A stretch of DNA of 64,000 nucleotides from Takakia lepidozioides. Taxonomy: Eukaryota; Plantae; Bryophyta. Position numbers and translations under genes: made by a program. The notes below the pieces were generated by a model. It saw only the letters and a list, made by a program, of their open reading frames with translations, had not been told where the DNA came from and did not search any database. Shown piece by piece: positions 3,401 to 53,223 of this stretch. Location of the stretch: NCBI GenBank assembly GCA_030704615.1, contig CM060734.1:14322001-14386000 (forward strand). The letters are read 5' to 3'. Every line of letters begins with the position of its first letter. Position 1 is the first letter of the stretch.

Positions 3401-4192
3401 TGCTCCTTGGAGCTAGTTCCATCATAGAAACCTTCACAAGGAAGGTACTCTCGAATCCGAATGGAAATACATCATTGTATTCCTTCGTGAGCCTCTCCTC
3501 CATCTTCTCGCATTTTTCCTTGTCAAAAATCTCCCCAGCTTTAGGTCTCTTGTTATCTGACATCAATGCTGGATCCTGATCCTCCTTCTGTTTCTTCTTT
3601 CCTGCGGAAGTCCCGGCCTCATTGTCATCATTGCCGGCTGTCGACGACTTGCGTTTTCCCTTCTTCGGCATTGATGCTTCCTGTAGTGCTCGCTTCTTGC
3701 GAATGTCGTTCCCCATTGCGTGCAGAAGTCCAGAAAAATACTCCAGGCCCTCGACAAACCTACGTCTGTAAATACAGAGCCCTCGTCTGGAAATCTAAAA
3801 CCCAGTGCAACGCATTCACTCATCAACGACTTGTTCAAACGATCCACCTCCACTTTGAAACCAAACGTCCTGGGGGTTCTCGCATCCTCATGCAGGAACA
3901 AAACCAACATCGGGTTTTCCTCTTTAGATTCAAGCTCTATATCGAGAGCCTCTGTGTATTTTAAGTCTGTTATTACTCCAAGACTTCTGTAATGAAAAGA
4001 CAGTTTGTGATTTGGAGGTGTACCGACAGGTACGATGCCCCAATCTGTCACCTCTGGGTTAAGCTCAAAAATAGCGGTATGCTCAGTTTTGAAATGTGAG
4101 GACTTCCGGCATACGAATGCGCCACAAATATCTCCAATCAATCCCGGGACGCAATCTGGTGGTGTAGGATGTCTTCTGTTACAACCAAACAC
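456..4192 (-). pseudogene. Spliced, disrupted gene for a ParB/Srx-like domain + degenerate amino-methyltransferase-like protein with an acidic/low-complexity tail (distant relative of the 12992-18552 gene)
   Basis: ORF 2967-3716 has FFVIGGQHTIVAAK (variant of the ParB GxxR/DGNHR motif). Putative GT-AG introns lie at about 3185-3053, 2797-2695 and 1291-1203. A downstream exon reads HEL*ADTYDYLASLFCRDEMSAVNIFGGVMLTYALH|ARNIQVLDIN, which aligns by eye with the MTase motif X/I/II region. Stops and frameshifts are present; the 3' end is uncertain. Confidence 0.55.
1337..1663. repeat. Tandem duplication of about 160-167 bp inside the ParB-like gene
   Basis: cggacatctcgtctcgacaaaacaggg...gagatgtgctcgtc occurs at about 1337-1504 and 1504-1663, with a small indel. 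Confidence 0.9.
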
Positions 4193-4497
4193 AAATTTAT
4201 TAGATAATCAAATAACATGATCTCTCTTACTAGCATCCATCATTCTAGAAATGAGAACCTCCACTGGACAGTGGAGGTTTGTATGTACGAGTCTTTCTAC
4301 ATGAAATGGGAAATCCTCCATATTTTACAGATGTTGAAGAAAAAAACTTTAATGAAAATGAGGCACAGGAGCCATTGAGTACATCATCCTGAAACAAGAC
4401 TAATCTACAATAGAAATCTTCGAACCTAATTTGTCCAAAATATACTAAGGAACTTCTCGCACTATATTCAGACAATTCTAGATTATATACCCAAGAA

Positions 4498-6829: not shown

Positions 6830-7045
6830 TTGAAGGGCCTAGCTACAATCAGCACTAGACTGAAATCTAAACTGAGGGCGGGAGTCTACCTTAGAACAAT
6901 AAACAGATGCAGACACGAAAAGGATATTGTCAATACCGGCTGTGTGGTCGACAATATTCATTTTCTGACCTTGCTGCCATGACCCATTTGGGAGCTAGAG
7001 GCTAACGTCAGTAAATATGTTGCGGTGGCATTCAACAACAGAAAT
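6830..7045 (+). mobile_element. Small rearranged remnants of the EN-RT LINE family found at 21345-27963
   Basis: gactgaaatctaaactgagggc (about 6858) and ctagaggctaacgtcagtaaat..gcattcaac (about 6995) match 27500 and 26720 respectively. Confidence 0.7.
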
Positions 7046-7534
7046 CCTTCCACAGGGAATCATAGGTAATCTGGAGCTTGAAATCCGGCCCTCTTGGATG
7101 AATCTGGACCCACACTCTATCCCTGCTCCTTCAGCTATCCATGTCTCTGCACAAATCATGCATACATCCTTGCCTTGTTGCTAGCAGCTGACAATGACAG
7201 CCTAGAATTGGTTAGCATCCCATACAACAATTGCTCGGCCACATTTGGCATACATCTCCACCAGGGCAGTGTTCAGGATGACATCTGGAACAATTCCAGC
7301 TTTGATGATATCACCATGGACCTCTTTCCACTTTTCCAGAGCTCCCAGGCTTGCACACGCATTGCAAACAAAAATAAATGTGATGTGGTTGGGCTTCACC
7401 CCTTTGCACATCATTTGCTCATAGGTCTCCAAAACCTCCATCCAACACCCAGCTTGCTGTGCATATCCTGCAATCATCGCACTCCACAACACCACATCTC
7501 GTTCAGCCATACTGTCGAGCACTCCCTTTGGATC
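7043..7534 (-). pseudogene. Deleted PLS-PPR paralogue fragment (PPR repeats joined directly to the DYW tail) followed by an OSB-type PDF motif
   Basis: ORF 7202-7576 reads [43 protein letters not shown] then [10 protein letters not shown]. The minus strand of 7043-7130 matches the PDF-motif DNA at 28152. Confidence 0.85.
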
Positions 7535-8454
7535 CCCAGCAAGAGATCCCCTTGTCTTGCTCACAACCCGCGCCAACTGTTGCTATATTGCCTGAAAGCT
7601 TGCTCATGTATCTTCTGCCGTTTTCGGGCTGGATGGCAGTTGAAGGTGGGTGACCACGACTACCTCCCATCCACAGAGCCTCCGCGACGTGCCACTTTCA
7701 TCCCTCGTGCTTGCCCATACTTGTGCCACGTGCAGTATCCAGAGTGCGCCATGGAAGTCATATGTTCCAGTCATAACGACCACCCCACCCCCATCCTGCA
7801 TAATTTGACTCCACGTGTGGACCTGGGATTAAACGTCCAAAGTCATATATGCCAGTCACGAAGGACCCTCCCGCTCCATATTGTCATGACACGTGTCATG
7901 TCCAATCTAATCCACGTGTTGTCCTGGGGTTAATCTGCGGAAGTCACCTTGTCATGCCACGTGTCGTTCCCGGTATTCTCCACGTGTTGTCTTGGGGTTA
8001 ATCCGCGGAAGTCGCATATGCCAGTCGTGAAGACCCTGTCACCTTCCCTTTGACGTGACACGTGGCATATCCCTTCCGTTCCACGTCAACGACGCTACCG
8101 CGTGAGCCTGGCGCGTGAGCGTGTGAGCGTACGCTCACACAATGATGACGTGGCGTGAGCCTACGCTCACGCTGCTGACATGGCGCGAGCCTGGTCCAGG
8201 TCATACGACGTCACCACAAAGAAGGTGGGCCTATAACCGTGGAGACCACAACTGCTGATTTCCTTCCACAACTGCTGATTTCCTCACATGAAGGTGAAAC
8301 GGATGAAGGGTTTTGGGCTTTCCTGGGCCTATAACCGTGGAGCCCCCAACTACTGTTTTCACCACATGAAGGTGAAACGGATGAAGGGTTTTGGGCTTTC
8401 CTGGAGTTCAACCTTCTTTTAACAGGAGCTTCATTTCGTTCCCCCGTCAAATGA

Positions 8455-8646
8455 ACTTCGTGTCGACAGAAGGGGGATTTGGAGAACTTCAACAAAACCT
8501 TGTGTTAACACGAGGTTGTTTTCTTGGAACAAAAATGAACCTCGTGTTGCAGCGATGTTGTTTTCTGAGAACTAAAATGAACCTTGTGTCAACACAAGGG
8601 GGATTTGGAGAACTTCAAGTAAACCTCGTGTTGACACGAGGTTGAT
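8455..8646. repeat. Subterminal cluster of about 5 palindromes (best copy AACCTCGTGT-TG-ACACGAGGTT)
   Basis: Copies at about 8456, 8497, 8538, 8580 and 8622. Confidence 0.8.
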
Positions 8647-8826
8647 TTGATCATCTGTCTATCTGAAGGTAGTTTCTTGTGTTTGCTAAAAGAGAATGAC
8701 AAACCAATGCGACAAATGCGTTGACCCACAAATAGCAAAGATGTTAGATGACATGGGACATGCTGAGAGACACTGGACTTGAACAGTCATTCCATTACAC
8801 ACAATTGTCAAGGAAAACACAGATTT

Positions 8827-11800
8827 TTATGGGGTTGTATCCCGCTGTAGAAGTGTGTTGACTTCGTTGTAACTCATAGTAGCTTGGTGAATGAAGAAGT
8901 CGAGCTTTGGATCACAAACCATCCTTCTCAAGAAGACGAAGTAAAGGTGTTTGCACGGTATGAACTTCCCTCTCTTCCCAAACTACTTGAAAGCATACCA
9001 ACAAAATCAGGACATGTACAATTGGGAAAATTGGAAACAGTGATGTCGTACGTCCTGTCTTGCAGCGAAGATGCGGATGAGATCATGGTGAAGACCCGAC
9101 CATACCCTGGATCAGGCACTTCCATTGTTCCCCCAACACGAGCGTAAAGCATTCTGGCGGACTCAATTTTGCCGTAGTGTTCTGCGGTTGGAGGGAATCG
9201 TCGAACCAGCTTCCCATTCCGTCTGGTTGGCCACAAGTGAGCGTCAGGCGGAGGTACCCGTGAACCGCTTCCACTTGAAGCACCTTCACGTGCAATGGAA
9301 TGTCTGGACAGGGAAAAACCCGCCTCTTCCAGCATTGCAATCTCTCGATGAGTGAGACCTGTGCCCATCTTCACAGGCCACACGGTTGGTGGAGTAGGCT
9401 TCCTTACCACGGAAGGCCTCACTGTCCCATGCACACATCTCCCACAATCGTCAACGCAGAACCAGAACTTGTGGTTCTTTGCCTCGCCTTGTCCGTAAGG
9501 GAGAAACAAACCCGTGAATGTAGGAGCTGCAGTGCGTTCTTTCCCTCTGGATATTAATGATGTACATTTTTCATGATTGGTGGCCCTGATCGCCGCGCAT
9601 TTCACACGCGATCCAGCACTTGTGCGTTCTATATGCCAAACATCGTCCAAGCCCTCAGACTCGATTATATGCGACACCACGTTCTGGTCTTCAACCATTG
9701 CAATGACAGTGCTTGATGCAGGGGTCCGGTCTGGGGCAGAGTAGCCCTCACCTGTGGATGTTCCGCAATTCCATCTCTGATCCAAGGGAACACGTGGCGT
9801 CGAGAAGTTGACCCTGTCCGCCCTATGGGAATCTGCATCCGATCCCGGAGGGGTGTCCAATTTCCGTTTGCAAGACCCGAATCTCTCTTCGCCTTCCAGA
9901 TGGGGAACTCTTCCCACGAGAGGGGTGCCATCTGCACATATGCTCACTGCCCGCGCTATTTTGCTAGGATCCCCTGATCTTCCAGCTGCCCGCAACATCA
10001 ACTCGCTCCTGTCCGGACCTTTGCCACCAAGGCCACCCCTCAAGAATGACCTGTATCTGGTTTGCTGCTGTAGAGCACGAATAAGGTCATCGGCCGTCGC
10101 TGCATACAAATCTCTCCCTTTTTTGCCGGATTGCTGCAACCAGGCATTGTGCACTGTCTCCGCAAGATTGCAAGAAGGCATGTTCGCCATCTCCTCAATG
10201 GACATATGCTGCAAGGCAAAAAAACACAAAACCCATATTAGAGTTGGACCCTGAAAGATATATTGGAAGCACCCAAACAAACTTTTGAATGCAAACCACT
10301 CACCGTTGTCATGGCCGCTCCCCACTGTCGGTAACGGAAGTGCCAAAATGCGAACCAGTCTTGCAGTGCCCTCATGCTGTCCTCCGATGCCGCTCCAGAT
10401 GAGTACCACCAGGCACGAATTGTCTGGAACAATGTATTCGCTTCCCCCATAGTTTTGGCGTCTTTGTACTGTTTGCACAGTTGACGATGCATACTCTGCA
10501 TATCTGGCTTGATGTACGTCTTTGTGTGTTTGTCGAGGGATTGTGTCCAATGAAAAAGACACGTACGTTCTCTTCCAGGCATTGGCACTTTTGGATCTCC
10601 CGACCCGAACACAATGCGGACAGCGTTGAAGTTAGCTTGAGCACTATCGGCCATGAAACCAACGAAATTGGGAGATGGGAGACCATTGGAGGCCATAACA
10701 CGAATGAGAGCTTCCCACATGAGCTGCTGTGAATCTGTGTCCTCTGACTGCATGTCACACACTGCAATTGTCATGACCCGCTGGTACACAGGGTCGTAAA
10801 CATGACATGCCATTGTGGTCCAGTCTTTAACTCTCTTGACATGATCGAACATAAGGAAGCAGTTGCCAAGATCGCCACCCTTCTGCATACGTTTAACCAG
10901 GCTGACCCCGCTGCCCTCACCTTTTGTGGACATTTTGAACAAGAACACTTTCCTGGCTCCTTGTCCCGGGAAAACGCTGTCTTGGATGTAGTCGTACATG
11001 CTCCTTTTCTTCAAATCCATAATATTGTCCATATAACCTCGGCTCCCAGAGCCCATTCTTAAAGCGTTCACCTGATTCCTAATGTTTGGAGAAGTCAAAG
11101 CAGAGAAATGGTCCATAACAGTGTCCAAAGCTGGTCCTTCCAGCATTCCTCCAACCGAATTTGATGCACACAGAATACGGCTTTCCAGAAAGGACTTGCT
11201 CGCCCCCATGGCAATTGCAGATGTGGTGCCAGTTGGATTGGTATCCAACTCTTGCCTTATCAGACGAGAGACTGTGTCAACGCTCTCCCTATAATCCCCC
11301 TTGGACACAGGGTGGTTGTGAAAACCGAAATGGACACAGGCTCTAGTCAGGTTTTTGAATCGATGCACCACATAATACATTCTGGCGCCACACAAAGCAA
11401 GGCAGCAAGGTGGTACCCTACAGAACTTGCACACAAAAGTGTTACTGTATGGTGGTGTTACCCCAGGCTTGAATGGATTCTCACTGACTCCATCCCATTC
11501 GCTTTGGTTTTGCACACCTGACAATGCGAAGTGTCTGCATTTCATGTTCTCGCATTTCAGGTGCCCATTACAGACTGTTCGCCTGAATATGAGGTTGTCG
11601 TTGTTGTGAATATTGGATGTTTTTGTGCGGCACCAAGGGTGCCCATCGTGCTTTTTGTCCATTCCTTCCAGGAGACTGGAAATCCCCCCACGCGACCAGG
11701 AGGAGGCAGCTCAAAAACAGTATTACCATCAAACGATTCCGGCAAGAATGCCACCCTTTCAATATTGAAAGTGCTCCAGTCTATCCCCCTCAACTCACTC

Positions 11801-12330
11801 TTGAATCCTGCCATCCCACCCATCGCTTTCAATTTAGGAATGACACTGGAGATCTCCTCCACATCTGGTTCTACATGTGGACATGGCTGATCCACAGGCG
11901 GTATTGCACATGTGTCATCGGAGGATGAGTCCGAAAGGTCAACTACAGTGTTAACGGCAGTCGCCTCCTTCTTCACAACCACTGGTGTCTTCTCCTGGGC
12001 CACTGATGCTGCCGTGCCAGGAGTTACGAACGATCCTGCAGACTGTCTCAGAGGAGCACTGAGCACCCTGTATCTGCCTGGAGGCACTCTCCATTGCGTG
12101 GTTGGTGCAGTTTGCGATGGTTTCTGGAACGCGTACTTGAGCAGTTTTCCATTGGCATCGTACACTTCCCTCTGAAGGAATAGACTACCATTTTCCAACC
12201 GAAACTGCATTGCGAGGACGAGTTCATGAACCACCGCAAAACCATCATCTTCCACCTCGTAAGAAAATGGAACAGGGTGGTCGTCACTGAAGAAGTCCGC
12301 GTCAAGGGAGCCCACAGCCTGGGAAGCCAT
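8827..12330 (-). CDS. MULE transposase: N-terminal GCM/WRKY-like zinc finger, DDE core, C-terminal SWIM finger (two apparent 1-bp frameshifts, one intron at 10303-10209)
   Basis: WCRTKTSN..RRTVCNGHLKC..CKFC..HFGFHNHP (GCM-like); LMFD..FMADSAQA..VF..CLFHW (D, D, CxxH); CNLAETVH (E); CTCPDF..PCKHLY (SWIM). Frameshifts are near 11685 (G run) and 8975. Confidence 0.85.
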
Positions 12331-12594
12331 ATGTCGATGTTGCTTCAGAAAGTACAGTTCAAAGTCCGATGGTGCTTCTGAATGCAGGTTGTGTGAGAGT
12401 GGAGTTTTGGCGTCCTCATACACAATTGTTCTCTCAGAATTGCCCCACCAGTGCATTAGCTGACAGATTCACTGACAGAGCCGCCAATGTCGTTGTCATG
12501 TCAGGGAGGCCAGAAGAGATGCCCATTTCCATTAAATTTTGACGACAACTGCACCGCTGCACAACTGAATATAATTCACATTCCTCTGGAACAT

Positions 12595-12835
12595 TCCACC
12601 CTAAATTACCCAACAATGAATTTTTTAAGATGAGAGTCGATTACACCCTAACGATTTTTGGATGGATGATGTTTGAATGATATCTGCCGTTATACATAGG
12701 GTTAGACCCCAACGAATTTTGTAAGGATGATGATTCATTGATCTCCGCCGTTAAACATAGGGGTAGAGATACCCCGATTACATTTTTGGAAGGATGATGT
12801 TTCAATAATTCCGGCCGTTTTACATAACGACTACA
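12595..12835. promoter_or_regulatory. Intergenic region between the divergent genes with 3-4 degenerate repeats of about 70 bp (candidate bidirectional promoter)
   Basis: Recurring atttttgga(a/t)ggatgatg...gccgtt(a/t)(a/t)acata units at about 12655, 12716 and 12782. Confidence 0.45.
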
Positions 12836-12991
12836 TAGACACGTGTTCGCCATGCATGTGGATTGAGTCGGTGGCGCACTGAACGGTCCGAGCGAACATC
12901 TTGGCGTTGAAGGCCTCGCGATGAACCTCAGATAATGTTCTTTTTGCCTGAGTAACTCATTTTCTTTGCAACCCTGGATTCCGCAGAGACG

Positions 12992-15900
12992 GTGTCCCTA
13001 CTTCGAGGGAGAAGCAAGCGTCGAAGAACACTGTATTTCACGTCAAACAAGGAAAGGGCACGCGCTAAGGAGAGGATGAGAAAGGCGAGACGGGAGCTTA
13101 GAATGGGAGAAGAAACCCCGCGAGATGAGGAAGAGGAAGGGCAAAAGAGGATTCAGCAACCGCAGTGTGGAGAGGAAGGTCTTGAAGTGATCCAGGAGGC
13201 GACAGACGAGCAACCTGCAATCGAAGGAGGGGATGAGGAGGAAGTAACCTGGGCTCGGGAGGAAGCAGTGAGAGTACAGAACCTGGCCTTCAAAGACCAG
13301 GGAGAACAAACGGACGTAGGAACGCGGCCGTCTGCCCCTGTTTCGCACCATCGCGACCTCCTTGGAAGCATGTTACCTCAAGACCGCATGGAAAAATTGA
13401 ACGCGACAGGAGCATCATCAAGTGCAAAGCAGAAACCCCAGGTAGCTACGAACTTTCTTTTTCTCTCTCTGTTTCTGTCTTTTTCTCTCTCTGTTTCTGT
13501 CTAAGCATTGAGGACGACATCAACCTTGCGTCAACGCAAGGTTGAAGTCGACCTCCAAAGTGTATTTGTTGGGCTCAAAACAGTGCAGAAACTGCACCAC
13601 AATCTGTACGGTTTCATGCTAAGCATTGAGGTGGACATCAACCTTGCGTCAACGCAAGGTTGAAGTCGACCTCAATGCTTTTTTGCTGGGCATAAAACAG
13701 TGTAGAAACTGCACTACAATCAAGGTAGAGAGACACGGATGCTTCCGACGCATCATGGATTTCAAAGAGGAAGCAGAGACAGGAGTCTCCATTTACTGTA
13801 GATATTTGCTTCGCTGAACCCCGATAAGAGAGCTCGCAATCAACCTTGCGTCAACGCAAGGTTGATCCCAACCTGCATATTGTATGTTTAGAGCTTGTAG
13901 TGAAACCAACAGAGGCTGCACAGGAATCAACCTTGCGTTGACGCAAGGCTGGTTTTCATGATATCTTTGCACAATGGATGCGTCCGATATCCCACTGTCC
14001 TCACTGTAAGGTAGGGAAAGTTCATTCTTCGAGGCTCCCAAAAGAACCCTGCGTCAACGCAAAACATAATTTGGGTCCAAACGTCTTTCCTGTATGCCTT
14101 TCAGTCTAAGTTACGTCCCCATCAATCAACCTTGCGTCAAAGCAAGGTTGATGCATGGGAGCTCAATCTCACACTCACAGATTATTAATTCTGTGCAGAG
14201 GAAAAGAAAAAGGAAATCCGAGGGGGAAGATTTGGCCGCTTCAGAAGGTGAAGGTGATGAAGAGTCACTGGAGGGACACTATGAAAACAAGGCCGAGGAG
14301 ATAATGGGTGGGCAAAAAGTGAACTCGTCGAAGGTGATTCTGTCGATGGAGGTTCCCGGCGGAAACCTGGTCATTCCGCTTTGCAGGATGATCTCCATGC
14401 CCACTGTTCGACCGGCATTGAGGAACGATATAACAAAGTTGAAGAACGACTTTGTTCACGGCTATGTGAAGGGATCAGCAGTGTTCTACGTATCCACTAT
14501 GAACACAAAAGGAGAGGAGTGTCTTGTAACAGAGGACATTGAGCAAAGTTGGGATGAATGCTGGCGGGATGTGAACAGGGAGTTCGAGTTCAAGCTGTCG
14601 AAGAAGACCTCCACAAAAGCATTCATGGGGAAGATGTTTTTTGTCTGGGATGGGAACCACAGACTGCTTGCCTGGATGGATTACATTTCAAGCATGCACT
14701 CGGACGACATCGAATGGCACTGGAGCGTGGTTTCCATGGTTCTGGATCACAAAGGGCATGTCACGCAGCTCTTGACAGCCATGCACGACATAAACAAGTA
14801 AGTCTCCATCTTTGTGTCTGTTCCTCGTTTCGACAATTAGAAATCATCTTATGAGTTGACGGTTTTTCCAGGTCCAACGAAACATCTCATGTGACCACCA
14901 ATCTGTGCCACACTCTGTTCCGCATCCAGAAGGTAGGGCTGATGCCACTGGAGTCATTCACGAACGTGCTTAGTCCACAGCAGATGAAGAGGTGTGCTGA
15001 GAAGAAGACAAGCACATGGTATAGCTTGACAAGGGAGGCTTTCCTTGACTACATGTACACTGTAAGCTTCTTGACACTGCTTGCTTTTTGACACTGCAAG
15101 CTTCTTGACACTACCTGTTGTTACTATTTTCTGACAAGTAATGACAGTGTTTCATTCTTTTTACCTGCAATGTATGCAGCAAGAAATAGCAGAAACCGGC
15201 TTGAAGGCGAAAGCTGAGTACTATGATTCCCACACTGAAGAGCAGCGGTCTGCATCTGGGCTTGAGGACACGATGAAGTTCGAGATGAATAATCAAAGGA
15301 AGAACCTCATGAGTGCATTCGACAAACAAATCAGGATAGCAGATCCAGGGCTTGGCACAGAATTTCTGGAGCAGGTGAAAGTGCACTATGACAAGTTTGG
15401 CTCCAAGCCAGAAATGACTCAGGAGAAACTACATCGCCTTTCCATTTCAATGGTGGACAATGCAACGAAAATCAGGTGGTTGGAGATATGGAACTCGGAT
15501 CCTCTTGTGAGAGACACGAATATGTTTCCAACTCCAGAGAGAGACCCGAAGACACAAGCAATAAAAGTTGTAAGCGACCAGACATTCGACCAGTGGCTAC
15601 ACAAAGCCACATTTTGGAGCCAGGTAAGGTTACCACCAAACCATTTTCAGACATGTGTGTTGCTCCGTAATTCTGCTCCCAACCTCTCCAAAATTCTTAC
15701 AAGCTTTCTTGTTGCAGTTAGAAAAACGTGCAGTGGCTGCACTTGCTGAGTCGATGGCAGACTACAAAATCAAGATGGCTTGCCCCCGGATCACACTGGA
15801 GGCCTATATCAGGAGGTGGAAGCTCGCTGTCTGGAACAATTGCTTCTTCAGGGAGTTTGAAAAAGACAAAGGAATCTCCAGATCGTACGAGTTCAAAAAC

Positions 15901-18552
15901 CAGCTGAACAGCGAGCAAGCAATGAAACGAGTGTTGTACAGGTGTGATCTCCTTACTCAATTGTGGTACTTGAAGGGCGTGCATCTGCAATCTTCTGTCA
16001 TACTTTCAGATTTGCGAATTTGCGTGGCTTTGAGGGATCTCTGGGGGCTCTGAATGTGCTGTCCAGCAACATTGCGTTGACGCAAAGTTGTTTCCCATGG
16101 TCCTGGTTTCACTTACCTATATCTGGGTATCCCATACTGGCGTTTTATTGCATGTGAATGGGGGTGAATGGACAGGAAAATCAGCCTTGCGTCAACGCAA
16201 TGTTGATGAGACGCAGACTATGTACCTTTTCCTCTGGTTTGGGGCAGTTCAAATCCAGATCCAATTCTGCCAACTTGAACATAACAATGTTTGGAGTCTA
16301 TTTCAAATGCTATTTTCAGCTTTCACTATGCCAACAAACAGACTTGCGTTGACGCAAGGTTGTTTGGCGGTATGGATTGATGGAAATGTCCCTGTGCATC
16401 CCCCAACTTCCATGCAATTGTAGGAGACTTTCGATTATCAGATATAATATCGATGTTTGTTTCAACAGAGGAATTCAACATTGCGCCAACGCAATGTTGA
16501 ATATCCATAGCAGTACATAGTGAGATGGTGGTTTTCAGGCATTGTTTCCCATTTCATCTGTGAGTGAAAACAACATTGCGTTGACGCAATGTTGTATTGC
16601 ACTTGTCAGTCGTTGTCTCTATCAATACAACGTAACCACTAGGTGTTTCCCATTTCTGCTCGAATCAACATTGCGTCAACGCAAGGTTGATTCTGGACAG
16701 CAAAAGTTGATTACCAGGTGTTCCCTTCCTTTATTTCAATATCTTCTTCTGAATGTCTGTTCTTTTCCATTTTCCGATTGACTGACTATCTGGGTTTTTG
16801 GTGTTTGATTCAGGTATATGTATCATATCCTCATACCGGGAAAGTACCTTAGCGATGACCCAGACTTCATCTATTCATGGGCTGACCCCTCCAATGAGAA
16901 GACAATGTACACGGCTGGTATTGCCAGAGACTGGAGCAGGGCGCACTTCAGAGACTGTGGGTGGTACCTCGACCTGCCAAAACAGGACACACCATTCGAT
17001 GAAGTTGTTTTGAGAAACCTGAACGACAATGCCGCAGCGATTGCCCCATTGGCAGACAAAGACATTCAGGACAGAATCATTTCTACTCTGGCTGCAAAAG
17101 AGCCCGAGAGAACTGCCACTCCAAAACGAAAGGGGAAGACTGTCGGGGATCCTAAGGGGAAGGGGAAAAGTGCAGCTCCGCAAGGACAGGGACCGTCAGA
17201 GGTTCCTGTCAGAGAGCCTTCTCCCGCAAGGAGGGATAGGAGAACATCAAAGTCGAGGGAGCAGCCTTACGAGGCGAGAGAACATCCCTCCAGGGTTTTG
17301 GGCCAGTTCAATCGTAGGGTGCTGAATGAAAGTTTTCTTGCAATGATGGAGTCCAGGAAGTCCATATTCAAAGGGGTGCCCTCGAAATCATGGGACATGC
17401 TTGTTTCGTTCCTCACTCAGGTAAACACTTTTGTCTAAACTGTTGTATGAATAATTGTGTTTTGGCATCTTGTTGTGGCTTTTCCAGGGGATTGATCTCC
17501 TGCTCGATTTGGATTGGGCTTCTTACACTGTCTCCTGTTTTTCCCTGTAGGTGACAAAAAATCCGGAATGGGTGAATGGAGTTCAGCAGGCATACGCGAC
17601 TGACCTTGTGGTGCTGGACATTCCTGACGGTTATCCTGTCCCTGATGTGTTCCCTTCCAATTCGACCCCGACTTGGAACAAATCGGATTCTCGTTATTGG
17701 CAGTGGGCTTTCTCGTTCAGCAACAAATTCCTTTCGGACTCGGGGGCTCTTCTTCTCATGCAGTCAAAGGACATGTCGGTCCGAAGAACTCTTTTCAGCT
17801 ACATGAAAGCCTCCGGGTTTCGTGTCATCAAAACTTGGACATGCATCAATACTCTGCCTCTTACGAAGGGCGAGTTCCCGGGGCAGAAAGTGAGTTGGTT
17901 CCTTTCAATTCATGTTTCGTTGTTTTTTCGGTAAATAAAAATGCTGGGTTATGCCTTCTGTCTCATGCTCTCTTCCTCATTGTTGACAGACACGGGTGTT
18001 CGAAGCTTTGTGCCTGGTGAGGCGGAAGGACACTCTTCCTCCTGGTGTTGCTGAGTTCCAGATGAGGGACCTTGCAGCTCATATTGACCCCACCTGCGAG
18101 CCTATGGAGGATGATGTTCTCTTCAATTACGTGGACTCGGGTCGAACTATGAAAAGGTCGATTGGTGTCCCTTGGAGAGGTGCACGGGAGAAATCTCCAG
18201 CTTTCATGCAGACTTTGGTGGAGACATGTAGCCGTCATGGTGGACGAGTGGTCGACTTGTCTATGGGCACATGTGGGGCACTTCACATTGTGATTGACAT
18301 ATGGGCAGTAACCTTAGGGAAACCCTGTTTTTATTTCTCGTTCTTCTTGGATTTGCAGGAGCATGTTTTCATGCTTGCAAGAGCGCCGGAAGGCACTTCT
18401 TCGGCATGGAAGCTGATACGGAGCTCTTCTCGAGCGAGCTTCGTCAGCTTGAGTCGGACACTACTTCTACCCCATCCAAAGAGGGACTTCTAGAGGAGCT
18501 CGAAGCGCCTGATGAGGATCTGGACGTGGACTCCGATTTTGAGTGTGAGTAA
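12992..18552 (+). CDS. Nine-exon gene of about 1110 aa: ParB/Srx-like domain fused to a beta-class N6A/N4C DNA methyltransferase-like domain
   Basis: Exons about 12992-13441, 14199-14797, 14872-15061, 15180-15623, 15718-15941, 16814-17420, 17551-17889, 17990-18272 and 18359-18552 splice with GT-AG in consistent phase. Motifs: FFVWDGNHRL (14649); DLVVLDIPDG (motif IV position, 17617); REKSPAFMQTLVETCSRHGGRVVDLSMGT-ACFHACKSAGRHFFGMEAD (motifs X/I/II). The start codon is uncertain, and the last junction as modelled creates TGA where Gly is expected. Confidence 0.75.
13520..14152. repeat. Six palindromes ATCAACCTTGCGT-CA-ACGCAAGGTTGAT in intron 1
   Basis: Copies at about 13520, 13638, 13839, 13927, 14045 (partial) and 14125. 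Confidence 0.92.
16067..16693. repeat. Six palindromes of the same family in intron 5
   Basis: Copies at about 16067, 16181, 16339, 16473, 16570 and 16662. Confidence 0.92.
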
Positions 18553-19454
18553 GTTCTTCTGTAGTCGTTCAAAATATGTGGCATTTCCTTGTGTCGTTCC
18601 CGTTCGAAAAAATTGCGTAACATTGTCTATATCTGGATGTTAACATCTGCCACCATTTCTCTTGTTCCTTTCCAGAGTTCTGCACCAGTCATTGAATCAG
18701 CAGACACCTTTCGGATTCCAAGGATACTACATGTCCCCGAGTCCCCCTAGATCCAACCGCTTGCCGGTTTACGCGGAAGCTTGCGCACGGGTGTTATCCG
18801 AACAAACACTGTATTCGCATCTCCATAAAGGTCGTGGAAAAAAAAAACGTCATGTATGTGCTGCTGTATTCATAGATGATATTGCTATTAACTCTGGCAG
18901 TGGTTCCTCTGAAACCTCCAATATTTCTTGACGGTTCAAGTACTGAGGCTCAATAAATTGTGTTTTGGCTTTGCTTCCATCCCATACTGTTTTTCAAGTT
19001 CTCTGCGCGTTCCCGTAAGTAGAGTTAGGGATTGCCTACGGTATTTCTTCGGAGTGCGGAATTGAAAAATGTTTGTGTGTTGGAGTGAATGTACTGCTTT
19101 GCCAAAAAAACATTTTTTCTTTTCAGATTCAGTTCTGTAGTGGGCGATCTCCTCATTCCAAAGTCAGGATCTCCCACAAAATTCATCCGCAAGCCTGCCA
19201 TTGTTCTCGGCCACAAGGAATATTCATGTGGGGGCAGTAAAGAGGGATAAAAAATTAGGACATAGGGGGGGGGGGAAGCACGGACATAGGTAAAAGGGGG
19301 GGGGGAGCACGGTAATAGGGGTGAGAGCACGGAACCGCGGTAATAGGGGAGGGGAGCACGGAATTAGGGCCTGAACACGTGGATGCTTGCTGACGTGGCG
19401 TGAGCCTAGCCAGGCTCACAGGCTCACAGGCCAGGCTCACGCGCAAGCATTCCC

Positions 19455-19694
19455 CGTTCCACGTGAAGCTGACATGGATTCGTAGTCATTTACCACGGTC
19501 TTATCAATGATTATGATTAGGCGTCCCCGTTGCCACGTCAACAGTGAGCTCCACGACTGACAGATACGACTCTATGACGCTTACGACTCATTTGTCACAA
19601 ATGACTGGGTTTATCTGACTGGGCAGTCATGAAGTCATAAAAGGCTGATACGACTGGAAAATAGCAGACGTAAAAGCCGGGATCTCTTGTAGTG
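19455..19694 (-). mobile_element. CACTA-type terminus and subterminal region, homologous to the left end of the 51453-52370 element
   Basis: The reverse complement begins CACTACAAGAGATCCCGGCTTTTACGTCTG..GTATCAGCC..TATGACTTC, matching 51453 onward. Confidence 0.75.
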
Positions 19695-21019
19695 AATAGC
19701 GATTTCAATGCGGGCACGTGTGGTTGTGGCGGGGCCCGCATGTGGGAGAGGGGTCGCACCGGGTGGGGCGCCCCCTACCTGACCGGCTCAATCTGCTCAG
19801 CTGAGCCCCCGGGGTAAACCAGTCTGCTAGGGCCCACAAACACATCATAAAACATTAATTTTTTGGAGGTGTTGCAAAAAGTAGTGGGTAGTGTGGTGGT
19901 AAAGAGCAACTCATAATAAGCATGCGGTTTGGTATTCAAGTCCTGCCAGGTGATACTGTGGTGTGGCAGTAATGTGTGTTAATAATAAATATATATTTTG
20001 TCGGAGGAGGGTCTGTCAGTCCGGTTGAAGGTTGGAGTCGGTACGCTCGCCGGTTGGAGTCCGCACGAAGGTTGACAATTTCAACCGCCTAACGAATTAT
20101 CTGAGACTTGCTATCAGGAGCAGCTGTGTCCGAACTCTAACGGTGAAACTCAAGCGTCGAAGAGCTGCAAGGACCTACAAAGATTTTGGGGTTGAGTGTG
20201 CGGCAAAATACAGAGTGCCTGTTAAAGACGGCCAACCTGTCTATGACAAACTCTCAGAGGAAGAAAGAGCAATACTGAGGAACTGTCTGCGAACAGCAAA
20301 TGCCTTACGTGGAGAATGGGACACATTGGGATGGGTGGAAAAAGGGCTTCTGCAGAGATTCTATATCCCAGAAGTAATATGTGAGCTTAATGGGGACACG
20401 AATCTGGAATTTAGAGGTGACTTTCTATTGTTCTGCAGTAATAGGAGCCAAAACAAGGACAATGTACAAGCCTCGAGGAAACCTGGACTTCTCCCCCCCT
20501 CACCCAACCCATTGGATTTTAAAGAAAGCTTTGTGCCACCACCAAGACCACGCCTTTTCCCGAAGGCTAAGCAGCAGATGTATACTGGTACAAAAACAAC
20601 AGCGTAGGCATCAACAGCGAACGAGGTAGACCATCTACGTGACATGCTTGTATGTTCCTCATTGTGTAGAGTCCAATGGAGCTCGCAGTGACTTGCATTG
20701 TTGTTGTTGAAAGCTACACATGCACTCCTCAAAGGAACTTGTCAAAGTGTTGATGCTGTCGGAATTTCTGGGCACAAAGGTCTACCGTGGAGCATGGAGG
20801 GGCGCTGGCATGAGGTTCTTAAAGATCCATCACAATGGTGTGACAACCGCAATGGCAAGGTGTGGCTTTCTTAATGTACGATGTGAAGTTTGTCTGTTGT
20901 GCAAAAGTGGGCTCTATCTGTCAGTATCGTGATTTGTTCTATTTCCTGGTCTTTACAAGGTGCTTGGGAGGGTCAGCTTGGTCTTAGGAGCCATTTTTTA
21001 ATTTATGGCTGCTCAGCTG

Positions 21020-21140: not shown

Positions 21141-21344
21141 GACACAACATCAAGGGCGATGTGGTGAGGGCACCTTCTTCTTCAACACCTTTCAGCCTGG
21201 TTTGTCCTCTTATCAGGATCATCCCTAATTTTTCATGTTGAATTCTGCACGTTAGCTTGTCGGGTGGTGGATCTATGTTGGATTGCTGATTTTGACGTGT
21301 TACTGCCAATGGCAACAGGCAAATATCCGGAAACAGAAAATAGA

Positions 21345-24300
21345 TTGTACTCATAAGACGTTGTTTGCCGTAGCCTTGTGGCCATTGACCCCGCGCCCAG
21401 TTTGAGCGGGAACAAAAGGGACAGAACCTACCTCTGTCAGGGGCTGACGTTGGTAGTAAGACTTACCTCCATATAAAGAATTAATCCGGGTTCCAGATAT
21501 CCTCTAGAAATCCCTTCACACAAGCATCAATCTGCTGTGTGTGATTTGCCCAAAAACTAGGCCTCAGGAGGGCCTGGGCTTTTGGCTCAGCCTCGAGACT
21601 TTCAAAGTTGGTAAACAGGGGTACAGGCACAATTCCCTTAATAGATTTGAAGAGAGCGTCTCTTTGGTGAGAGAACCCCGGACAGTGTATCAGAAAATGA
21701 ATACTGTCTTCAGATTGCCCACACAACGGGCAATTGCACTCTCCCTTTCCTCTCTGCTTCTGTTTGCTGTTCAAAGGTAGGCTTCCTGCCCTGAGTTTAA
21801 ATTTCAGTCTAGTGCCGAGAGTGGGTAGACCCTTGAGGTCATCCAAGATGTCCTCCCCATGTCACAGACTGGAAACAAGTTCAGGGAAGTTTTCTGCCTA
21901 ACTTCATTTTCATCAACAGACATGGCTGAGGACACTACAGCCTCTAAGTCAGATTTATCCAGCAGGGTCAAGACTTGCGGATCCAGGTCCAGGTCCTTGA
22001 GAATCTCTTCTACTCTCTTCTGCCAGGACTTAGCCTGTTTGACAGGGCGGTCCTGTTTCCAAGATATAGAGTCGATTACCTTAGGATATCTGGTGTTGGG
22101 CATATGTTGCAGCTGACCCCACCATCTGACCTTGAATTCATCTCGTCGGGAGCTTAGGGACGGAATGCTAAACTCACCCCGAACAGCCACATTGGCTGTT
22201 TTGGAGCATGCTGACATACACTCCTTAAGCACCCCCACTTGAATGGATTCTAGAGACTTAGCCTGGTTGGAGTTATCAACCCATATAGCAGATCCGTACT
22301 CCAAGGCAGGTCTAATAACGCGACAAAGCATGGTTTTCTTAACCTCAGAGTTGACCCCTCTGCAGTGGAAAAATTTAGTGAGCCCCAGAGCTTTGCCCTT
22401 GCCAGTTTGAACAACTTTCCGGATATGTGCATCCCAATTACAATTGGAGGAGAACTCAACGCCCAGGTAAGTGTAGGAAGGGAGGACCGGGATCTCTTGG
22501 CTACCCCACTGCCACTTAAGATCACTTCCTCCCTCTCCTCTGTCGTTGAATGCTACCACTGCACATTTGCTGACATTAGCCTCTAGCCCCCAAAGATCAA
22601 AGTATCTCTTCGCGCAATCAATCAACTCCTGGAGATTGGTTGGAGTCTCCCCTATGCCTGCCTCAAGGTTTACACAAGACGAACAAATCCTATACATGGG
22701 GTAATTGTCCCCAAGCCGTCAGATGGACAATCTGTCCCTAAGTGTGCAGAGCCTGAACGTCGTGTAACTGAAGGATTTGGTACTCTAAATGGTTTACCAA
22801 TCCCCAAAGTCTACACAAGACGAGCAAAATCTATACACGGGGTAATTGTCCCCAAGCAGTCTGACGGACAATCTGCCCCTATGTGTGCGGAGCCTGTGCG
22901 TCGTGTAACTGAAAGATTTGGTACCCTGAATGGTTTACCAATTCTCAAAGTTTACACAAGACGAGCAAAATCTACACATGGGGTAACTGTCCCCCCTTTG
23001 CAGAACGGTTGGCCGTCCAGGAGCAATCACAAGCTACCTAGACGACAAACAATTCACACGCAAAGGGCTGGCTTGCGGCTGGCCACTTTCAACTTCTCAG
23101 GGTTGACCAACCAAAGGAAACAACTTGAAGTGGGACAAGTTCTTCGGACTAATGATATTCATATCTGTGCTGGGCAAGAAACATGGGAAACGTCGGATAA
23201 ACTGGTTGGAGATGTCATTGGTTATAAATGGGCAGGTAAGATGTGTACTCTCAAGGCAGCCTCTGCCAAACGCGGTCAAAAAGGGGTTGGATTCTTTGTC
23301 CGTGATTTCTTGTTTGACAATTGTGAAATTATCAACAAGGGTTTGAGGTACGAGCATAGTATCTGGCTAAAACTGAATTTGAAGGGCGGCATGAGTACAA
23401 AGGACCTCTTTGTTGGTTGTGTTTACATGCCCACAGAGGGGACCCTTAGTGCTGACGCAGACAAGGCCTTCGAAGATGTAAAGCTGGACTGTGCTTCGTT
23501 CCTTGCCAAAGGTCAGGTGGTACTATTGGGGGACTTCAATGCCCGGGTGGGCAAAGGGATCCATCAGGACGATATCATTGGACCTTTTGGTGAGGACGAG
23601 CTGAATTCTAATGGCAGACGGTTAATTAACTGTCTAGAAGAGCTTCAGCTTTTGACCTTGAATAACAGGACAAGAGGTGACCAAGTGCAATGGACTCGTG
23701 AGAAACCCCAAACTGGGGAACGTTCCATTGTGGACTATATCATAATGGACAAAATTTTGTTCCCCCAGTGTGCCAATGTGTTGATCGACAGAACTGATAT
23801 TGGTACCTCTGACCACTTCCTGGTTTGGACTGAGATCAAAAGGTGTTTTCCCACCACCAAGAGATCTGTGAAACGTTCGATTCGGAAGTGGCGCATAGAA
23901 AAATTCCACAATGAGGAGGTCAAGGCTGAGTACGTCCAGGCCTTGCAAGAGGCTCTCCCTCATTTTGTCCAATCGCTCCAAGAACTTCAGTCACGCTCTG
24001 TTAACGCAAGAAATGAAGTCGAAAGAGCAGTGGACTCTTGGGAGAGTTTCGTTTCCTCCGTGGCTGACAAGATCATTGGGAGGAAACTAATTGTCTGCGG
24101 TAGAGCAGTTAATTGGTGGACTAATGAGATTAAACTCAAGATAGCTGAGAGACGAGCCCTCTATAAAGAGTGCTGCAATTTGGAAACCAACAGAGAATTG
24201 TGGGCGAGGTACTACCAGCTCCGTAAAGATATCAATCAGCTTGTTAGGTCTCAGAAGAAATTATACTGGGACAAGTTATACAGTGAAATAAACTCAAACC

Positions 24301-25536: not shown

Positions 25537-27963
25537 ATCAATCAGCTTGTTAGGTCTCAGAAGAAATTATACTGGGACAAGTTATACAGTGAAATAAACT
25601 CAAACCACCATGGTGGTAATGACAAGAAATTCTGGTTGGCCCTTCAACGTTTGTACAAGCCGAAAAACGGTCAGCAAGTACAAGCGCTGAAGACTACTAA
25701 AGGTGCAGTGGTGACTTCATCGATTGACATTGTCAAAACCTTTGAAACTCACTACAGTATCCTTGGCAGAACTTCTAGGTCTAACAGTGAGGGGTCTTCT
25801 GCTGAATGGAGGGACACAGTTGGAAAAACTGTTCCTATGATTCAAAACTGCCCTGATGAACTGGAGTATATTTCAATGGCTTATAATGCTCCCATTAGTT
25901 CTTCTGAGATTGTGGAAGCAATTGAACATTTAAATGGATATAAAGCTGGTGGACCTGATGAAATTGTCAACGAGCTTATCAAGCACGGTGGCGATCCCAT
26001 GATAGAGGCCCTAGTTCTCCTCTTTAACCTTATCTGGAAGACTGAAATGATCCCCTTTCGCTGGCGACAGGGGGTCATTGTCAATCTATACAAGAAGGGT
26101 GACAGAGAAGAACCGGGGGAACTACCGTGGCATCACGCTCCTCAATGCTGTTGGCAAGACATTCTGCAGAGTTATAAGTACTCGTCTCGAGGTTGATCTG
26201 GAGTCTAGAGGTTTGTTTCCACGAAGGCCAAGCTGGCTTTCGGCGAAACAGGGGCTGTGTGGATCATATCTTCACTCTAAGCCAGATTATCCAGGGAAGG
26301 AAAAAAGAAGGGAAACCCACTTATGTCTTTTTCCTGGATGTCAAAAAGGCTTATGACACAGTGTGGAGAGATGGCCTATGGTTCCGCCTCTGGTCTTGTG
26401 GGATCAAGGGAAAGATGTGGAGAGTTGTCCACAACTTGTATGCTCACACCAAAAGCTGTGTCACTGTTAACGGACAGAAGTCCAACTTCTTTGACATAGA
26501 CCAAGGTGTAGCTCAAGGATGTACTCTCTCCCCTCTGCTCTTCAATGTTTTCATCAATCAACTCCTCGAGGATGTGGAAAGTGAGGGATTTGGGTTAAGG
26601 GTGGGTGATACCACCATACCAGCCCTTATGTTTGCGGATGACTTCGCAGGCATAGGGGAGACTCCAACCAATCTCCAGGAGTTGATTGATTGCGCGAAGA
26701 GATACTTTGATCTTTGGGGCTAGAGGCTAATGTCAGCAAATGTGCAGTGGTAGCATTCAACGACAGAGGAGAGGGAGGAAGTGATCTTAAGTGGCAGTGG
26801 GGTAGCCAAGAGATCCCGGTCCTCCCTTCCTACACTTACCTGGGCGTTGAGTTCTCCTCCAATTGTAATTGGGATGCACATATCCGGAAAGTTGTTCAAA
26901 CTGGCAAGGGCAAAGCTCTGGGGCTCACTAAATTTTTCCACTGCAGAGGGGTCAACTCTGAGGTTAAGAAAACCATGCTTTGTCGCGTTATTAGACCTGC
27001 CTTGGAGTACGGATCTGCTATATGGGTTGATAACTCCAACCAGGCTAAGTCTCTAGAATCCATTCAAGTGGGGGTGCTTAAGGAGTGTATGTCAGCATGC
27101 TCCAAAACAGCCAATGTGGCTGTTCGGGGTGAGTTTAGCATTCCGTCCCTAAGCTCCCGACGAGATGAATCAAGGTCAGATGGTGGGGTCAGCTGCAACA
27201 TATGCCCAACACCAGATATCCTAAGGTAATCGACTCTATATCTTGGAAACAGGACCGCCCTGTCAAACAGGCTAAGTCCTGGCAGAAGAGAGTAGAAGAG
27301 ATTCTCAAGGACCTGGACCTGATCCGCAAGTCTTGACCCTGCTGGATAAATCTGACTTAGAGGCTGTAGTGTCCTCAGCCATGTCTGTCTGTGATGAAAA
27401 TGAAGTTAGGCAGAAAACTTCCCTGAACTTGTTTCCAGTCTGTGACATGGGGGAGGACATCTTGGATGACCTCAAGGGTCTACCCACTCTCGGCACTAGA
27501 CTGAAATTTAAACTCAGGGCAGGAAGCCTACCTTGAACAGCAAACAGAAGCAGAGAGGAAAGGGAGAGTGCAATTGCCCGTTGTGTGGGCAATCTGAAGA
27601 CAGTATTCATTTTCTGATACACTGTCGGGGTTCTCTCACCAAAGAGACGCTCTCTTCAAATCTATTAAGGGAATTGTGCCTGTACCCCTGTTTACCAACT
27701 TTGAAAGTCTCGAGGCTGAGCCAAAAGCCCAGGCCCTCCTGAGGCCTAGTTTTTGGGCAAATCACACACAGCAGATTGATGCTTGTGTGAAGGGATTTCT
27801 AGAGGATATCTGGAAAACCCGGATTAATTCTTTATATGGAGGTAAGTCTTACTACCAACGTCAGCCCCTGACAGAGGTAGGTTCTGTCCCTTTTGTTCCC
27901 GCTCAAACTGGGCGCGGGGTCAATGGCCACAAGGCTACGGCAAACAACGTCTTAAGAGTACAA
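25537..27963 (+). mobile_element. Second, near-identical 5'-truncated copy of the same LINE (RT + C-terminal CPLC..H..C zinc motif), 15-bp TSD
   Basis: Begins at sequence matching 24231 and ends ...gagtacaatct. TSD tctctcccccgaaca is at 25522-25536 and 27964-27978. Several 1-bp frameshifts are present. Confidence 0.93.
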
Positions 27964-28147
27964 TCTCTCCCCCGAACACATTTCTAGAGTCTTGGGAGCA
28001 ATTCAGCATAGGAATTAGTGTGTGATATGTAGGGTTGGGGTGGTTGCTAGAAAAATGTGAGGGTGTCATTGGTAGCTGCTAGTCGCCAGGGGATGATCTA
28101 TGTATGATTGGTGCCAAGGCAGGGAGAGCTGAAGGAGCAGGGGTGGA

Positions 28148-40464: not shown

Positions 40465-40680
40465 GCAATTCACTTGATCACCCCCTAAAAGTGCGCAATT
40501 CAAGTGAACTGCAAAAACTAGCTTGAAAACAACCCTAATCTGCAATTCAATTGAGTTGTCGGCACACAATTCAATTGAATTGCAAATTGATAATTCAATT
40601 GAATTGTTGACTACAATTCAAGTGAATTGTAAATCTGCAATTCAATTGAATTGTCAACTCGCAATTCAATTGAATTGTAA
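40465..40680. repeat. Array of the short palindrome CAATTCAATTGAATTG
   Basis: About 8 exact or near copies, with spacing of about 20-45 bp. Confidence 0.85.
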
Positions 40681-49019: not shown

Positions 49020-50676
49020 TTCAGAAACAGAAGGAAAAAAGAATCATGAGCACGCGAAGCGCAGTCCAACAGGTCCCAGAGTAATAGCAGATCCAACGGA
49101 ATTCATTCAACGGGTGAACGGAACGGATGGTTGCCCATCCAAATCATTTTTGTTTGCTTTCAAACTTTGCCAATATGTTCGGGACACCCTCTCACAGGTC
49201 CCTGACCAATACGAGATCAATCAAAATTCATTCGATGGCTGCACGGATGGTTGCCCTTCGAAATGATTTTGGTTCCCTTTGAGACTTGGCCAGTATGTTC
49301 AATGTACCATCTAAGAGGTCCCAGAGTGATATGAGATGAAACGAAATTTGTTCAATGGGCCAACGGATGGTTGCCCATCCAAATGATTTTTGTTCGCTTC
49401 AAGACTTGGCCAGCATGTTCAACGTACCATCTGACAGGTCCTAGAGCAATACGAGATCAATCGAAATTCGGTCAATGGGCCAATGAGGCGTTCACCTCTC
49501 ATCCAGTTTTTGTTCATTGCGAAAAAAAGAAATCCTACAATGCGTGCACGGCTATTGCACCCATTGAATGGATGTGGTTAAAGCCCATCTTTTGCCAGCA
49601 TCTGCTTCAACACGTGTGCGGCACATGTGCAGAGACACAACAGAAGACAAAATCATTTGCCTCCCCATCGACGCGCTCAGCCCTCAACCCATTCGAGAAT
49701 TTAATCGAATTTAAATGAATTTGAAGCTTGTAATTAGGTCAACGCCGTCTTTTCATTGGGGGTTTCTGCCACGTATCAATTTTATTTTTGGCTCAATTTT
49801 GTTCTGCGGCTTCAAACCTCCCACCGCTACATCCCTGCCAAAATTTGGACCAATAAAAAAGGATCCAAGAGAAGAGTGTTGGACATCTTCGCTCACTATT
49901 GCAGAACTCTCTATGAAGAGTGCGCGAAGTAGAACACAAATCAAGTTTGGAGTGCAAAACAGGGAAGAAGCTGTGGTTCTCGGTCTAAATGAATTTTGTT
50001 TCCCTCCCGAATTCGGCACGCACGTTGCATATGGAGTCATTACACATACGGTTCAGAAACAGAATGAATCATGAGCACGCGAAGCGCAGTCCAACAGGTC
50101 CCAGAGTAATAGCAGATCCAACGGAATTCATTCAACGGGTGAACGGAACGGATGGTTGCCCATCCAAATCATTTTTGTTTGCTTTCAAACTTTCCCAGTA
50201 TGTTCGGGACACCCTCTCACAGGCCCCCGACTAATACGAGATCAATCGAAATTCATTCGATGGCTGCACGGATGGTTGCCCTTCGAAATGATTTTGGTTC
50301 CCTTTGAGACTTGGCCAGTATGTTCAATGTACCATCTAAGAGGTCCCAGAGTGATATGAAATGAAACGAAATTTGTTCAATGGGCCAACGGATGGTTGCC
50401 TATCCAAATGATTTTCGTCGCTTCGAGACTTGGCCAGCATGTTCAACGTACCATCTGACAGGTCCTAGAGCAATACGAGATCAATCAAAATTTGTTCAAT
50501 GGGCCAATGAGGCGTTCACCTCTCATCCAATTTTTGTTCATTGCAAAAAAAGAAATCCTGCAATGCGTGCACGGCTATTGCACCCATTGAACGGATGTGG
50601 TTAAAGCCCATCTTTTGCCTGCATGTTCTTCAACACGTGTGCGGCACATGTGCAGAGACACAATACAAGACAAAAT
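49020..50676. repeat. Two direct copies of about 630 bp (1025-bp spacing), each built from four subunits of about 120 bp
   Basis: gaatcatgagcacgcgaagc occurs at 49041 and 50066; aggtcc subunit anchors are at 49071, 49196, 49316 and 49436. Confidence 0.9.
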
Positions 50677-52880: not shown

Positions 52881-53223
52881 AGCTATCGTGTGAGCAGCTC
52901 ACGTGAGCACGCTTACGCTTAAAGTGGAAAATGTGAGCAGAATCCCTTAAGCGTGAGCAGATTAGTGAATGGGAGCCTACAACCGAGGGAAGAAGAGGGC
53001 CTATTGCCGTGGACAAAAACTACAATGCACGGACGCAATCCACACCCCATCCGACGGAAGAATCCAAGCTCCATGACGACCGTATGGTACGAATGTGCGA
53101 TGAAAAAACTGTCGGATGAATGGTTTTCAGGATGAATGAAAAATGGAATGGATGAATGGTGGATGACTTGTGGATGAAAAATGAGCGACACGGATGAACC
53201 ATGGTGTGTGTGCAGGTGCTTGG

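Follow-up and report, generated by a model that had tools for sequence, protein, structure and literature searches.

The stretch analysed here, hereafter the window, comprises 64,000 nucleotides of Takakia lepidozioides contig CM060734.1 (assembly GCA_030704615.1, positions 14,322,001 to 14,386,000). It has the content of land-plant DNA, with PPR-DYW genes, pectin methylesterase inhibitor genes and a LINE (long interspersed nuclear element)-type reverse transcriptase, and it carries two related transposons of shared layout, in which a transposase gene on the minus strand lies divergent to an intron-rich cargo gene on the plus strand. The subject of this report is a set of family-specific palindromes in both elements, together with the ParB-like cargo protein that probably binds them.

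Element 1 is a Mutator-like DNA transposon of about 11.4 kb (8087-19453). It is bounded by an 11-bp direct repeat (8076-8086 and 19454-19464), which is within the 8-11 bp range of the target site duplications of Mutator-like elements (MULEs; PMC6446971), and contigs in runs X1 and X5 link 8075 to 19454 across the element as empty-site joints. Because a motif in the surrounding repeat is similar to the 11-bp repeat, the exact ends are uncertain. The termini share a short imperfect inverted match (27 of 30 bases, 8099-8128 versus 19414-19443), and a cluster of GTGAGC/GCTCAC motifs at the left terminus (8095-8170) is mirrored at the right one (19388-19448). Element 2 (52887-64000) extends past the end of the window and has a similar GTGAGC cluster at its left end (52887-52958). 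Its transposase gene (54946-58591, minus strand) and its cargo gene (from about 59300, plus strand) both contain stops or frameshifts, and its proteins are 42-71% identical per segment to those of element 1. The transposase gene of element 1 (8928-12468, minus strand) is frameshifted and carries indels relative to other copies; its D..D..CxxH..E motif and its C-terminal SWIM-like motifs are kept across relatives. The CxxH motif is the rule in MULE transposases. A Pfam search of the transposases gave no MULE family match, so the MULE label rests on these motifs and on the element ends; the SWIM profile match on the element-2 transposase piece was weak (E 0.039). The depth of contigs specific to the element-1 subfamily was about 10 times that of the flanking contig (about 870-1330 versus 99 in run X1), which hints at about ten close copies, though depth is not a copy number. 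A joint between 8186 and 19388, abundant in runs X1 and X3, points to a non-autonomous derivative about 150 bp long, which would consist of the two ends of element 1 and lack palindromes.

Palindromes in the two elements and in their relatives

With up to 9 mismatches to consensus allowed, 40 palindromes of 28-30 bp were found, 17 in element 1 and 23 in element 2. At a stricter cut-off of 7 mismatches there were 14 element-1-type and 23 element-2-type sites, each type confined to its own element and absent from the rest of the window. In element 1, five palindromes with a 42-bp period and the core TGT-YR-ACA (8451-8646) lie directly 3' of the transposase gene, six lie in intron 1 (sites at 13519-14152, intron at 13442-14198) and six in intron 5 (sites at 16065-16691, intron at 15942-16813), the last with mutually unrelated flanks. 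The right end of element 1 has no palindromes. In element 2, six palindromes lie in the left arm (53224-54821), one of them at 53224 and five at 54321-54821 in tandem units of 79-133 bp; eleven lie in intron 1 (59567-60620), mostly in an 81-bp tandem array, five in intron 5 (62414-62889) and one in intron 6 (63699-63728). All 29 sites within the cargo genes (12 in element 1 and 17 in element 2) are intronic, in a gene span that is 41% intron in element 1. An earlier reading made from the sequence alone had described element-specific palindromes clustered in the left subterminus, intron 1 and intron 5 of both elements and missing from exons, and this description holds; the intron 6 site is an addition, and the subterminal cluster lies outside the interval to which the sequence-only reading had assigned the sites.

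A scan of the window for a palindrome plus core, with a core pattern picked after the data had been viewed, returned 31 sites, 28 of them family sites, compared with 1.25 on average over 20 dinucleotide-shuffled versions. The variants are often symmetric, as had been claimed. Symmetric departures from consensus numbered 12 in element 1 against 4.6 expected (none of 5000 arm shuffles reached 12) and 8 in element 2 against 4.1 expected (P 0.024); because sites within one array share descent, these changes are not independent events. Half-sites agreed at 3 of 3 core positions and at 5 of 10 arm positions. A CG dinucleotide is intact in 50 of 58 intronic half-sites and in 11 of 12 half-sites of the element-2 left arm; throughout the element-1 subterminal array it has been lost from both arms (intact in 0 of 10 half-sites). 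Sequence variants in intron 5 were also considered and set aside as evidence: one of 40 listed places fell inside a palindrome, the palindromes making up 19% of the intron, and cross-mapping inflates the depth.

The position of the sites was then compared among relatives recovered by a metagenome scan. The best 80 loci of 112 confirmed stretches formed 41 clusters at 93% identity, and one representative was counted per cluster; 28 clusters had at least 1 kb upstream and 13 were too short to score. The core sought was CG-N-YR-N-CG, with C>T and G>A decay allowed. The 2-kb upstream flanks of the ParB exon, together 58 kb, held 61 core palindromes against 3.4 expected, and the remaining 329 kb of these loci held 19; since the pattern was chosen after the loci had been viewed and the clusters share descent, these statistics overstate the case. 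A reversed-core control gave 8 against 5.5 expected. At least three upstream sites were present in 11 of the 28 clusters, and with a narrower core none of 135 other 2-kb windows held as many. Despite the overstated statistics, the positional signal upstream of the ParB exon is plain, and the conserved feature is clustering in intron 1 or upstream of that exon. The claim that a GTYRAC centre is kept did not hold: GTYRAC is intact at the centre of only 29 of the 40 window sites, and the 58 kb of relatives contained no strict GTYRAC-centred palindrome upstream of the ParB exon. The conserved part is CG-N-YR-N-CG. The most frequent cores in relatives are TGGCACCA and CGGCACCG.

The arms vary by family. 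They read GAGGTGC in L006 (16 sites), GGTATTGG in L009, CATATG in L023 and GCTACTYT in L038, L050 and L075; they are common to the close relatives L006 and L010 and differ among distant relatives. Both branches of the cargo tree's deepest split contain sites. In L009 (1250-1580), L019, L025, L034 and L038, the sites upstream of the ParB exon alternate with a second class of palindromes, which has cores such as GCTCAAGC, ACTTGAGC and TCGATCGA and is enriched in its GC-N-YR-N-GC form (15 against 3.4 expected).

The cargo gene and its predicted protein

The cargo gene of element 1 (13076-18552, plus strand) has at least nine exons in a spliced model, and its intron positions are common to element 2. 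Exon 2 (14199-14797) encodes the ParB-like domain and exons 7-9 encode an amino-methyltransferase fold. At the exon-8 donor the element-1 copy departs from other copies and contains a stop. A look-up of RNA data for 13000-19500 listed none. In run X6, whose RNA nature is no more than a guess, contigs of related copies begin at the boundary of exon 6, depart from the genome where exon 8 ends and skip 18544-18682. This is a weak sign that the cargo of relatives is spliced, and it suggests a further 3' cargo exon.

A profile of the ParB exon matched 1143 cluster representatives. Those with a species name come from the fern Adiantum nelumboides and from the liverwort Riccia sorocarpa, the latter contributing 28 relatives of a single full-length protein. 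Searching with exon 2 for longer homologous proteins yielded none among 322 candidates, no relative was found in the prokaryote genomes searched, and the viral contigs searched gave one 19-residue match only and lacked the element-1 palindrome. Sequence searches against Pfam, NCBIfam and the PDB recognised neither the ParB exon nor the transposase, and a Pfam search of the cargo exons returned no family match.

The predicted structure model of exon 2 has a mean pLDDT (predicted local distance difference test) of 69, and its top Foldseek rows are Noc, KorB and ParB (best E 0.027). In the VIA comparison, the top 8 rows are all of the ParB/Srx fold, led by PadC (Z 6.8, root-mean-square deviation (rmsd) 3.2, 93 aligned) and KorB (Z 6.2), and the next unrelated row has a Z of 2.5. 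These models predict a ParB/Srx fold for the cargo N-terminus. The Riccia homologue P0206 is 29% identical over 336 aa and 23% over 211 aa, and its model has a pLDDT of 67. KorB aligns to residues 110-448 of this model (Z 7.5, rmsd 6.5, 179 aligned), reaching the helical region after the ParB domain. Pocket-like residues are kept in the family (R 64/72, GNHR 64-67/68-71, N 70/73), and we read the conserved R, GNHR and N as probable counterparts of the ParB-type nucleotide pocket.

The C-terminus is predicted to adopt a beta-class amino-methyltransferase fold. That of P0206 resembles M1.HpyAVI (Z 14.7, rmsd 3.9, 192 aligned; Foldseek E 1.9e-7), and comparison with 11 beta-type enzymes gave Z values of 12.3-14.7 and a permuted Rossmann fold with motif IV before motif I. 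The profile PF01555 matched P0164 (E 5e-5), and exon 9 of the window matches phrog_3008. The catalytic rule for motif IV in this class is [DNSH]PP[YFW] (PMC4738411). The motif reads DIPD in the window and DYPE, DIPE, DVPR, NVPE, DIPW or DIPS in the loci of relatives; over 24 rows the second position is never P and the fourth is T in 13, S in 9, N in 1 and F in 1; most rows read DxP[T/S/D/E]. Because motif IV is non-canonical, methyltransferase catalysis is doubtful, and a GTYRAC methylase is a less likely identity for the domain than an altered or non-catalytic module.

An unrelated intron-bearing gene at 456-4279 (minus strand) has, by eye, a ParB-like motif (FVIGGQH) and no adjoining MULE transposase. 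It carries its own perfect 24-bp palindrome with the core CTG-NN-CAG, upstream at 4256-4279 and in an intron at 3123-3146, with a degenerate copy downstream at 165-188. Hidden Markov model tests found no link between this gene and the cargo family. The open reading frame at 2970-3794 was rejected as a relative of the ParB exon, since the apparent match was partly intron sequence and vanished on retest. If the gene at 456-4279 is ParB-like, the palindromes would follow the cargo type and not the transposase.

Candidate binders of the palindromes

The palindromes are family-specific DNA sites in the non-coding parts of the two elements. Each element's own ParB-like cargo protein probably binds them as a dimer and would thereby regulate its own family, much as VANC does on VANDAL elements but by means of a ParB/KorB-type module; we put the probability of this reading at roughly 0.62. 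The two-fold palindrome would be read by the protein dimer, the variable arms would give family specificity, and tandem duplication would multiply the sites. The sequence-only reading had likewise tied family-specific double-stranded DNA sites to the cargo gene, and this is upheld by the same position of the sites in relatives, by the absence of strand bias and by the N-terminus resembling ParB, KorB and Noc. The clusters bracket the transposase gene and lie 0.4-1.1 kb inside the start of the cargo gene; because they are placed in this way near the divergent promoter, the bound protein could act on the whole element. KorB and ParB spread or bridge over promoters once loaded. The loaded cargo protein may do the same over the divergent promoter and so regulate the transcription or chromatin state of the family. 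The CG in each half-site could make the candidate binding sensitive to host 5-methylcytosine (5mC).

Several observations weigh against this reading. The cargo genes are broken in both window copies. The scores for the ParB fold are weak (no Foldseek E of 0.001 or below, and Z values that stay below 8), and a separate helix-turn-helix domain was not recognised in the cargo. DGNHR is conserved in place of the GERRxRA/GERR of cytidine triphosphate (CTP) clamps, in which GERRxRA forms an arginine patch (PMC7333895). Among relatives, 17 of the 28 clusters are without at least three upstream sites, for which decay in stop-riddled copies may account; sites in later introns were seen in L006, L025 and L038 only, and subterminal clusters are not evident. 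The shared descent of the clusters and the post hoc choice of the core pattern count here as well.

A different binder within the element is unlikely. The N-terminal, GCM-like domain of the transposase might bind the palindromes for transposition or for transcriptional activation, and one cluster in each element does lie in the left subterminus directly after the transposase gene. MULE transposases can serve as sequence-specific activators of cognate copies (10.64898/2026.08.24.746577), and of the 15 clusters with at least 5 kb upstream, 6 have this transposase there in divergent orientation. However, the right end of element 1 lacks palindromes, whereas GTGAGC clusters mark both ends and are common to both elements. 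These clusters are the better candidate transposase sites, and because of this separate motif the transposase is the less likely binder of the palindromes. Relatives keep the palindromes beside the ParB exon and not at the ends, and arrays beside a ParB gene also accompany an unrelated transposase, that of Plavaka (10.1101/2025.02.11.637652).

It is improbable that the sites have no binding function and arose as side effects of tandem duplication and hairpin-templated correction, or as tiny independent mobile repeats inserted into introns. Many sites do lie in tandem units of 42, 81, 118 or 133 bp, template switching would likewise yield symmetric changes, and the contig depth peaks on the palindromes, as would also be expected if they occurred elsewhere. 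An independent miniature inverted-repeat transposable element is opposed by the flanks, in which no target-site-like repeat of 4, 5, 8 or 9 bp was found at any of the 29 intronic sites with six boundaries tested. The palindromes persist amid unrelated sequence: in intron 5 of element 1 the identity is 0.82 within palindromes and 0.30 in the flanks, and diverged subfamilies join the palindrome to differing intron-5 sequence (joints 15940-16671 and 16693-16801). The same core also recurs at the same position in deeply separated families.

More improbable still is binding by a host transcription factor or a role of the sites as RNA hairpins within introns. The intragenic sites all fall in introns close to the gene's 5' end, a region in which enhancers and splicing elements are often found. 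One host factor would not predict family-specific arms, however, and the subterminal clusters look untranscribed. Mismatches did not favour G-U on the transcribed strand (11 G-U versus 13 A-C), the centres are CA in 20 sites, TG in 17, TA in 2 and CG in 1, and Rfam gave no match at 8000-20000. The lack of strand bias and the mixed CA and TG centres therefore indicate a double-stranded DNA site.

Very improbable, finally, is the suggestion in the sequence-only reading that the palindromes are HindII/HincII-like methylation targets, with the cargo enzyme writing N6-methyladenine or N4-methylcytosine at GTYRAC: the methyltransferase fold predicted for the Riccia homologue is clear, GTYRAC is central in most window sites and a few relatives keep an aromatic motif IV residue (DIPW, DVPF), but GTYRAC-centred sites are absent upstream in relatives, other GTYRAC hexamers are not enriched (0.89/kb inside the elements versus 0.99/kb outside), motif IV departs from the published rule (DIPD here and mostly DxP[T/S/E] in relatives) and a 6-bp target leaves 28-bp arms unexplained.

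As to the outcome of binding by the cargo protein, the analogy with VANC, a MULE accessory protein with family-specific intronic and terminal motifs, slightly favours anti-silencing, to which we give somewhat better than an even chance; self-repression, as with KorB or DndB, comes close to even.

Neighbouring features, related systems and meaning

Several features of the window stand apart from the palindromes. Element 1 is nested in a repeat whose end is CACTA at 19694 (window 19459-19694), and a related CACTA-ended element of 0.9 kb lies at 51455-52370. An intronless ribosomal protein L31e sequence (53607-53930, plus strand), which has palindrome clusters on either side in the element-2 left arm, is likely a captured fragment or retrocopy. 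Around the LINE-type endonuclease/reverse transcriptase region there is a near-perfect inverted duplication of about 1.3 kb (21342-22661 and 26646-27966), either a fold-back structure or an assembly artefact, and a 1.3-kb direct duplication lies inside this region. PPR-DYW-like repeats are found at 7044-7640 (minus strand) and 28468-30789 (plus strand), one fragment adjoining element 1. A block of 120-bp tandem units, itself duplicated, occupies 49038-50620, and a palindromic tandem array of CAATTCAATTGAATTG lies at 40543-40677.

The hypothesis of self-binding has already been published for transposons of red and brown algae. In the red alga Bostrychia, the Plavaka gene PAG3 is a ParB-domain accessory gene beside tandem arrays of inverted repeats, and its product was proposed to bind and modify its own element (10.1101/2025.02.11.637652). 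The two systems share a transposon accessory gene with an N-terminal ParB-like domain and adjoining inverted repeats. PAG3 differs in its CACTA/Plavaka transposase, in the fusion of ParB to a 2-oxoglutarate oxygenase and in having the methylase in a separate gene; here a land-plant MULE carries ParB fused to a degenerate amino-methyltransferase, with sites inside introns. The accessory gene of Sola1-1_Ec32 in Ectocarpus encodes a ParB-methyltransferase, and such proteins were called a possible new class (PMC12477816). By its description, this protein of about 1100 aa is similar in joining a ParB-like domain to an N4C/N6A methyltransferase and in lying on the strand opposite the transposase; it belongs to a Sola transposon of a brown alga, and the text available describes no palindromic sites. 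ParB-type helix-turn-helix-methyltransferase fusions are reported from chlorophytes and chytrids (Iyer et al. 2016, PMC4738411).

VANC, from the VANDAL elements of Arabidopsis, binds family-specific motifs in introns, between genes and in terminal regions that do not code for protein, and tandem repeats multiply these motifs (PMC5735166). It is likewise a MULE accessory protein whose family-specific motifs have accumulated in non-coding regions; its motifs are 8-9 bp and non-palindromic, and the text available describes no ParB or methyltransferase fold for it. Binding and demethylation have been shown for VANC; the cargo protein here is a putative binder. The bacterial clamps ParB/parS (PMC7333895), KorB/OB and Noc/NBS share with the cargo system the ParB-type N-terminal fold and the clustered palindromes, and they are its best structural neighbours. 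Unlike these clamps, the cargo system has GNHR for GERRxRA, no ParA, an intron-bearing eukaryotic gene, sites of 28-30 bp and a C-terminal methyltransferase fold. DndB binds palindromes in its own operon as a homodimer and controls a DNA-modification system (PMC4507180). Its DGxHR motif recalls the cargo, and TIGR03187 matched weakly in 3 of 88 aligned cargo members (best E 0.001); DndB differs in its bacterial phosphorothioation operon and short spaced half-sites and has no fused methyltransferase. Papers on 4mC in Marchantia and in rotifers also exist. A literature search without most subscription journals found no report of such self-binding in land-plant MULEs, of intronic sites or of a conserved core, and the supplements of the algal papers, PMC4738411 and Iyer et al. 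2011 may name plant members.

What the finding adds for land plants is a defined set of candidate sites with a conserved core, arms that vary by family and cross-family controls provided by nature, so that the self-binding hypothesis is directly testable by swaps in electrophoretic mobility shift assays. It also bears on how a binder of short sites acts over a whole transposon, a question open for VANC to which ParB-type spreading is one answer. A bolder and rather doubtful version is that a widespread MULE lineage of seed-free land plants uses a nucleotide-dependent sliding clamp of bacterial type, in which the cargo protein would load at family-specific parS-like palindromes, sense 5mC at the conserved CG core and spread over kilobases, its methyltransferase-fold module shielding or marking the element against silencing. 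If true, this would be the first ParB/parS-type clamp on eukaryotic chromatin, and it would offer many natural protein-site pairs of differing specificity.

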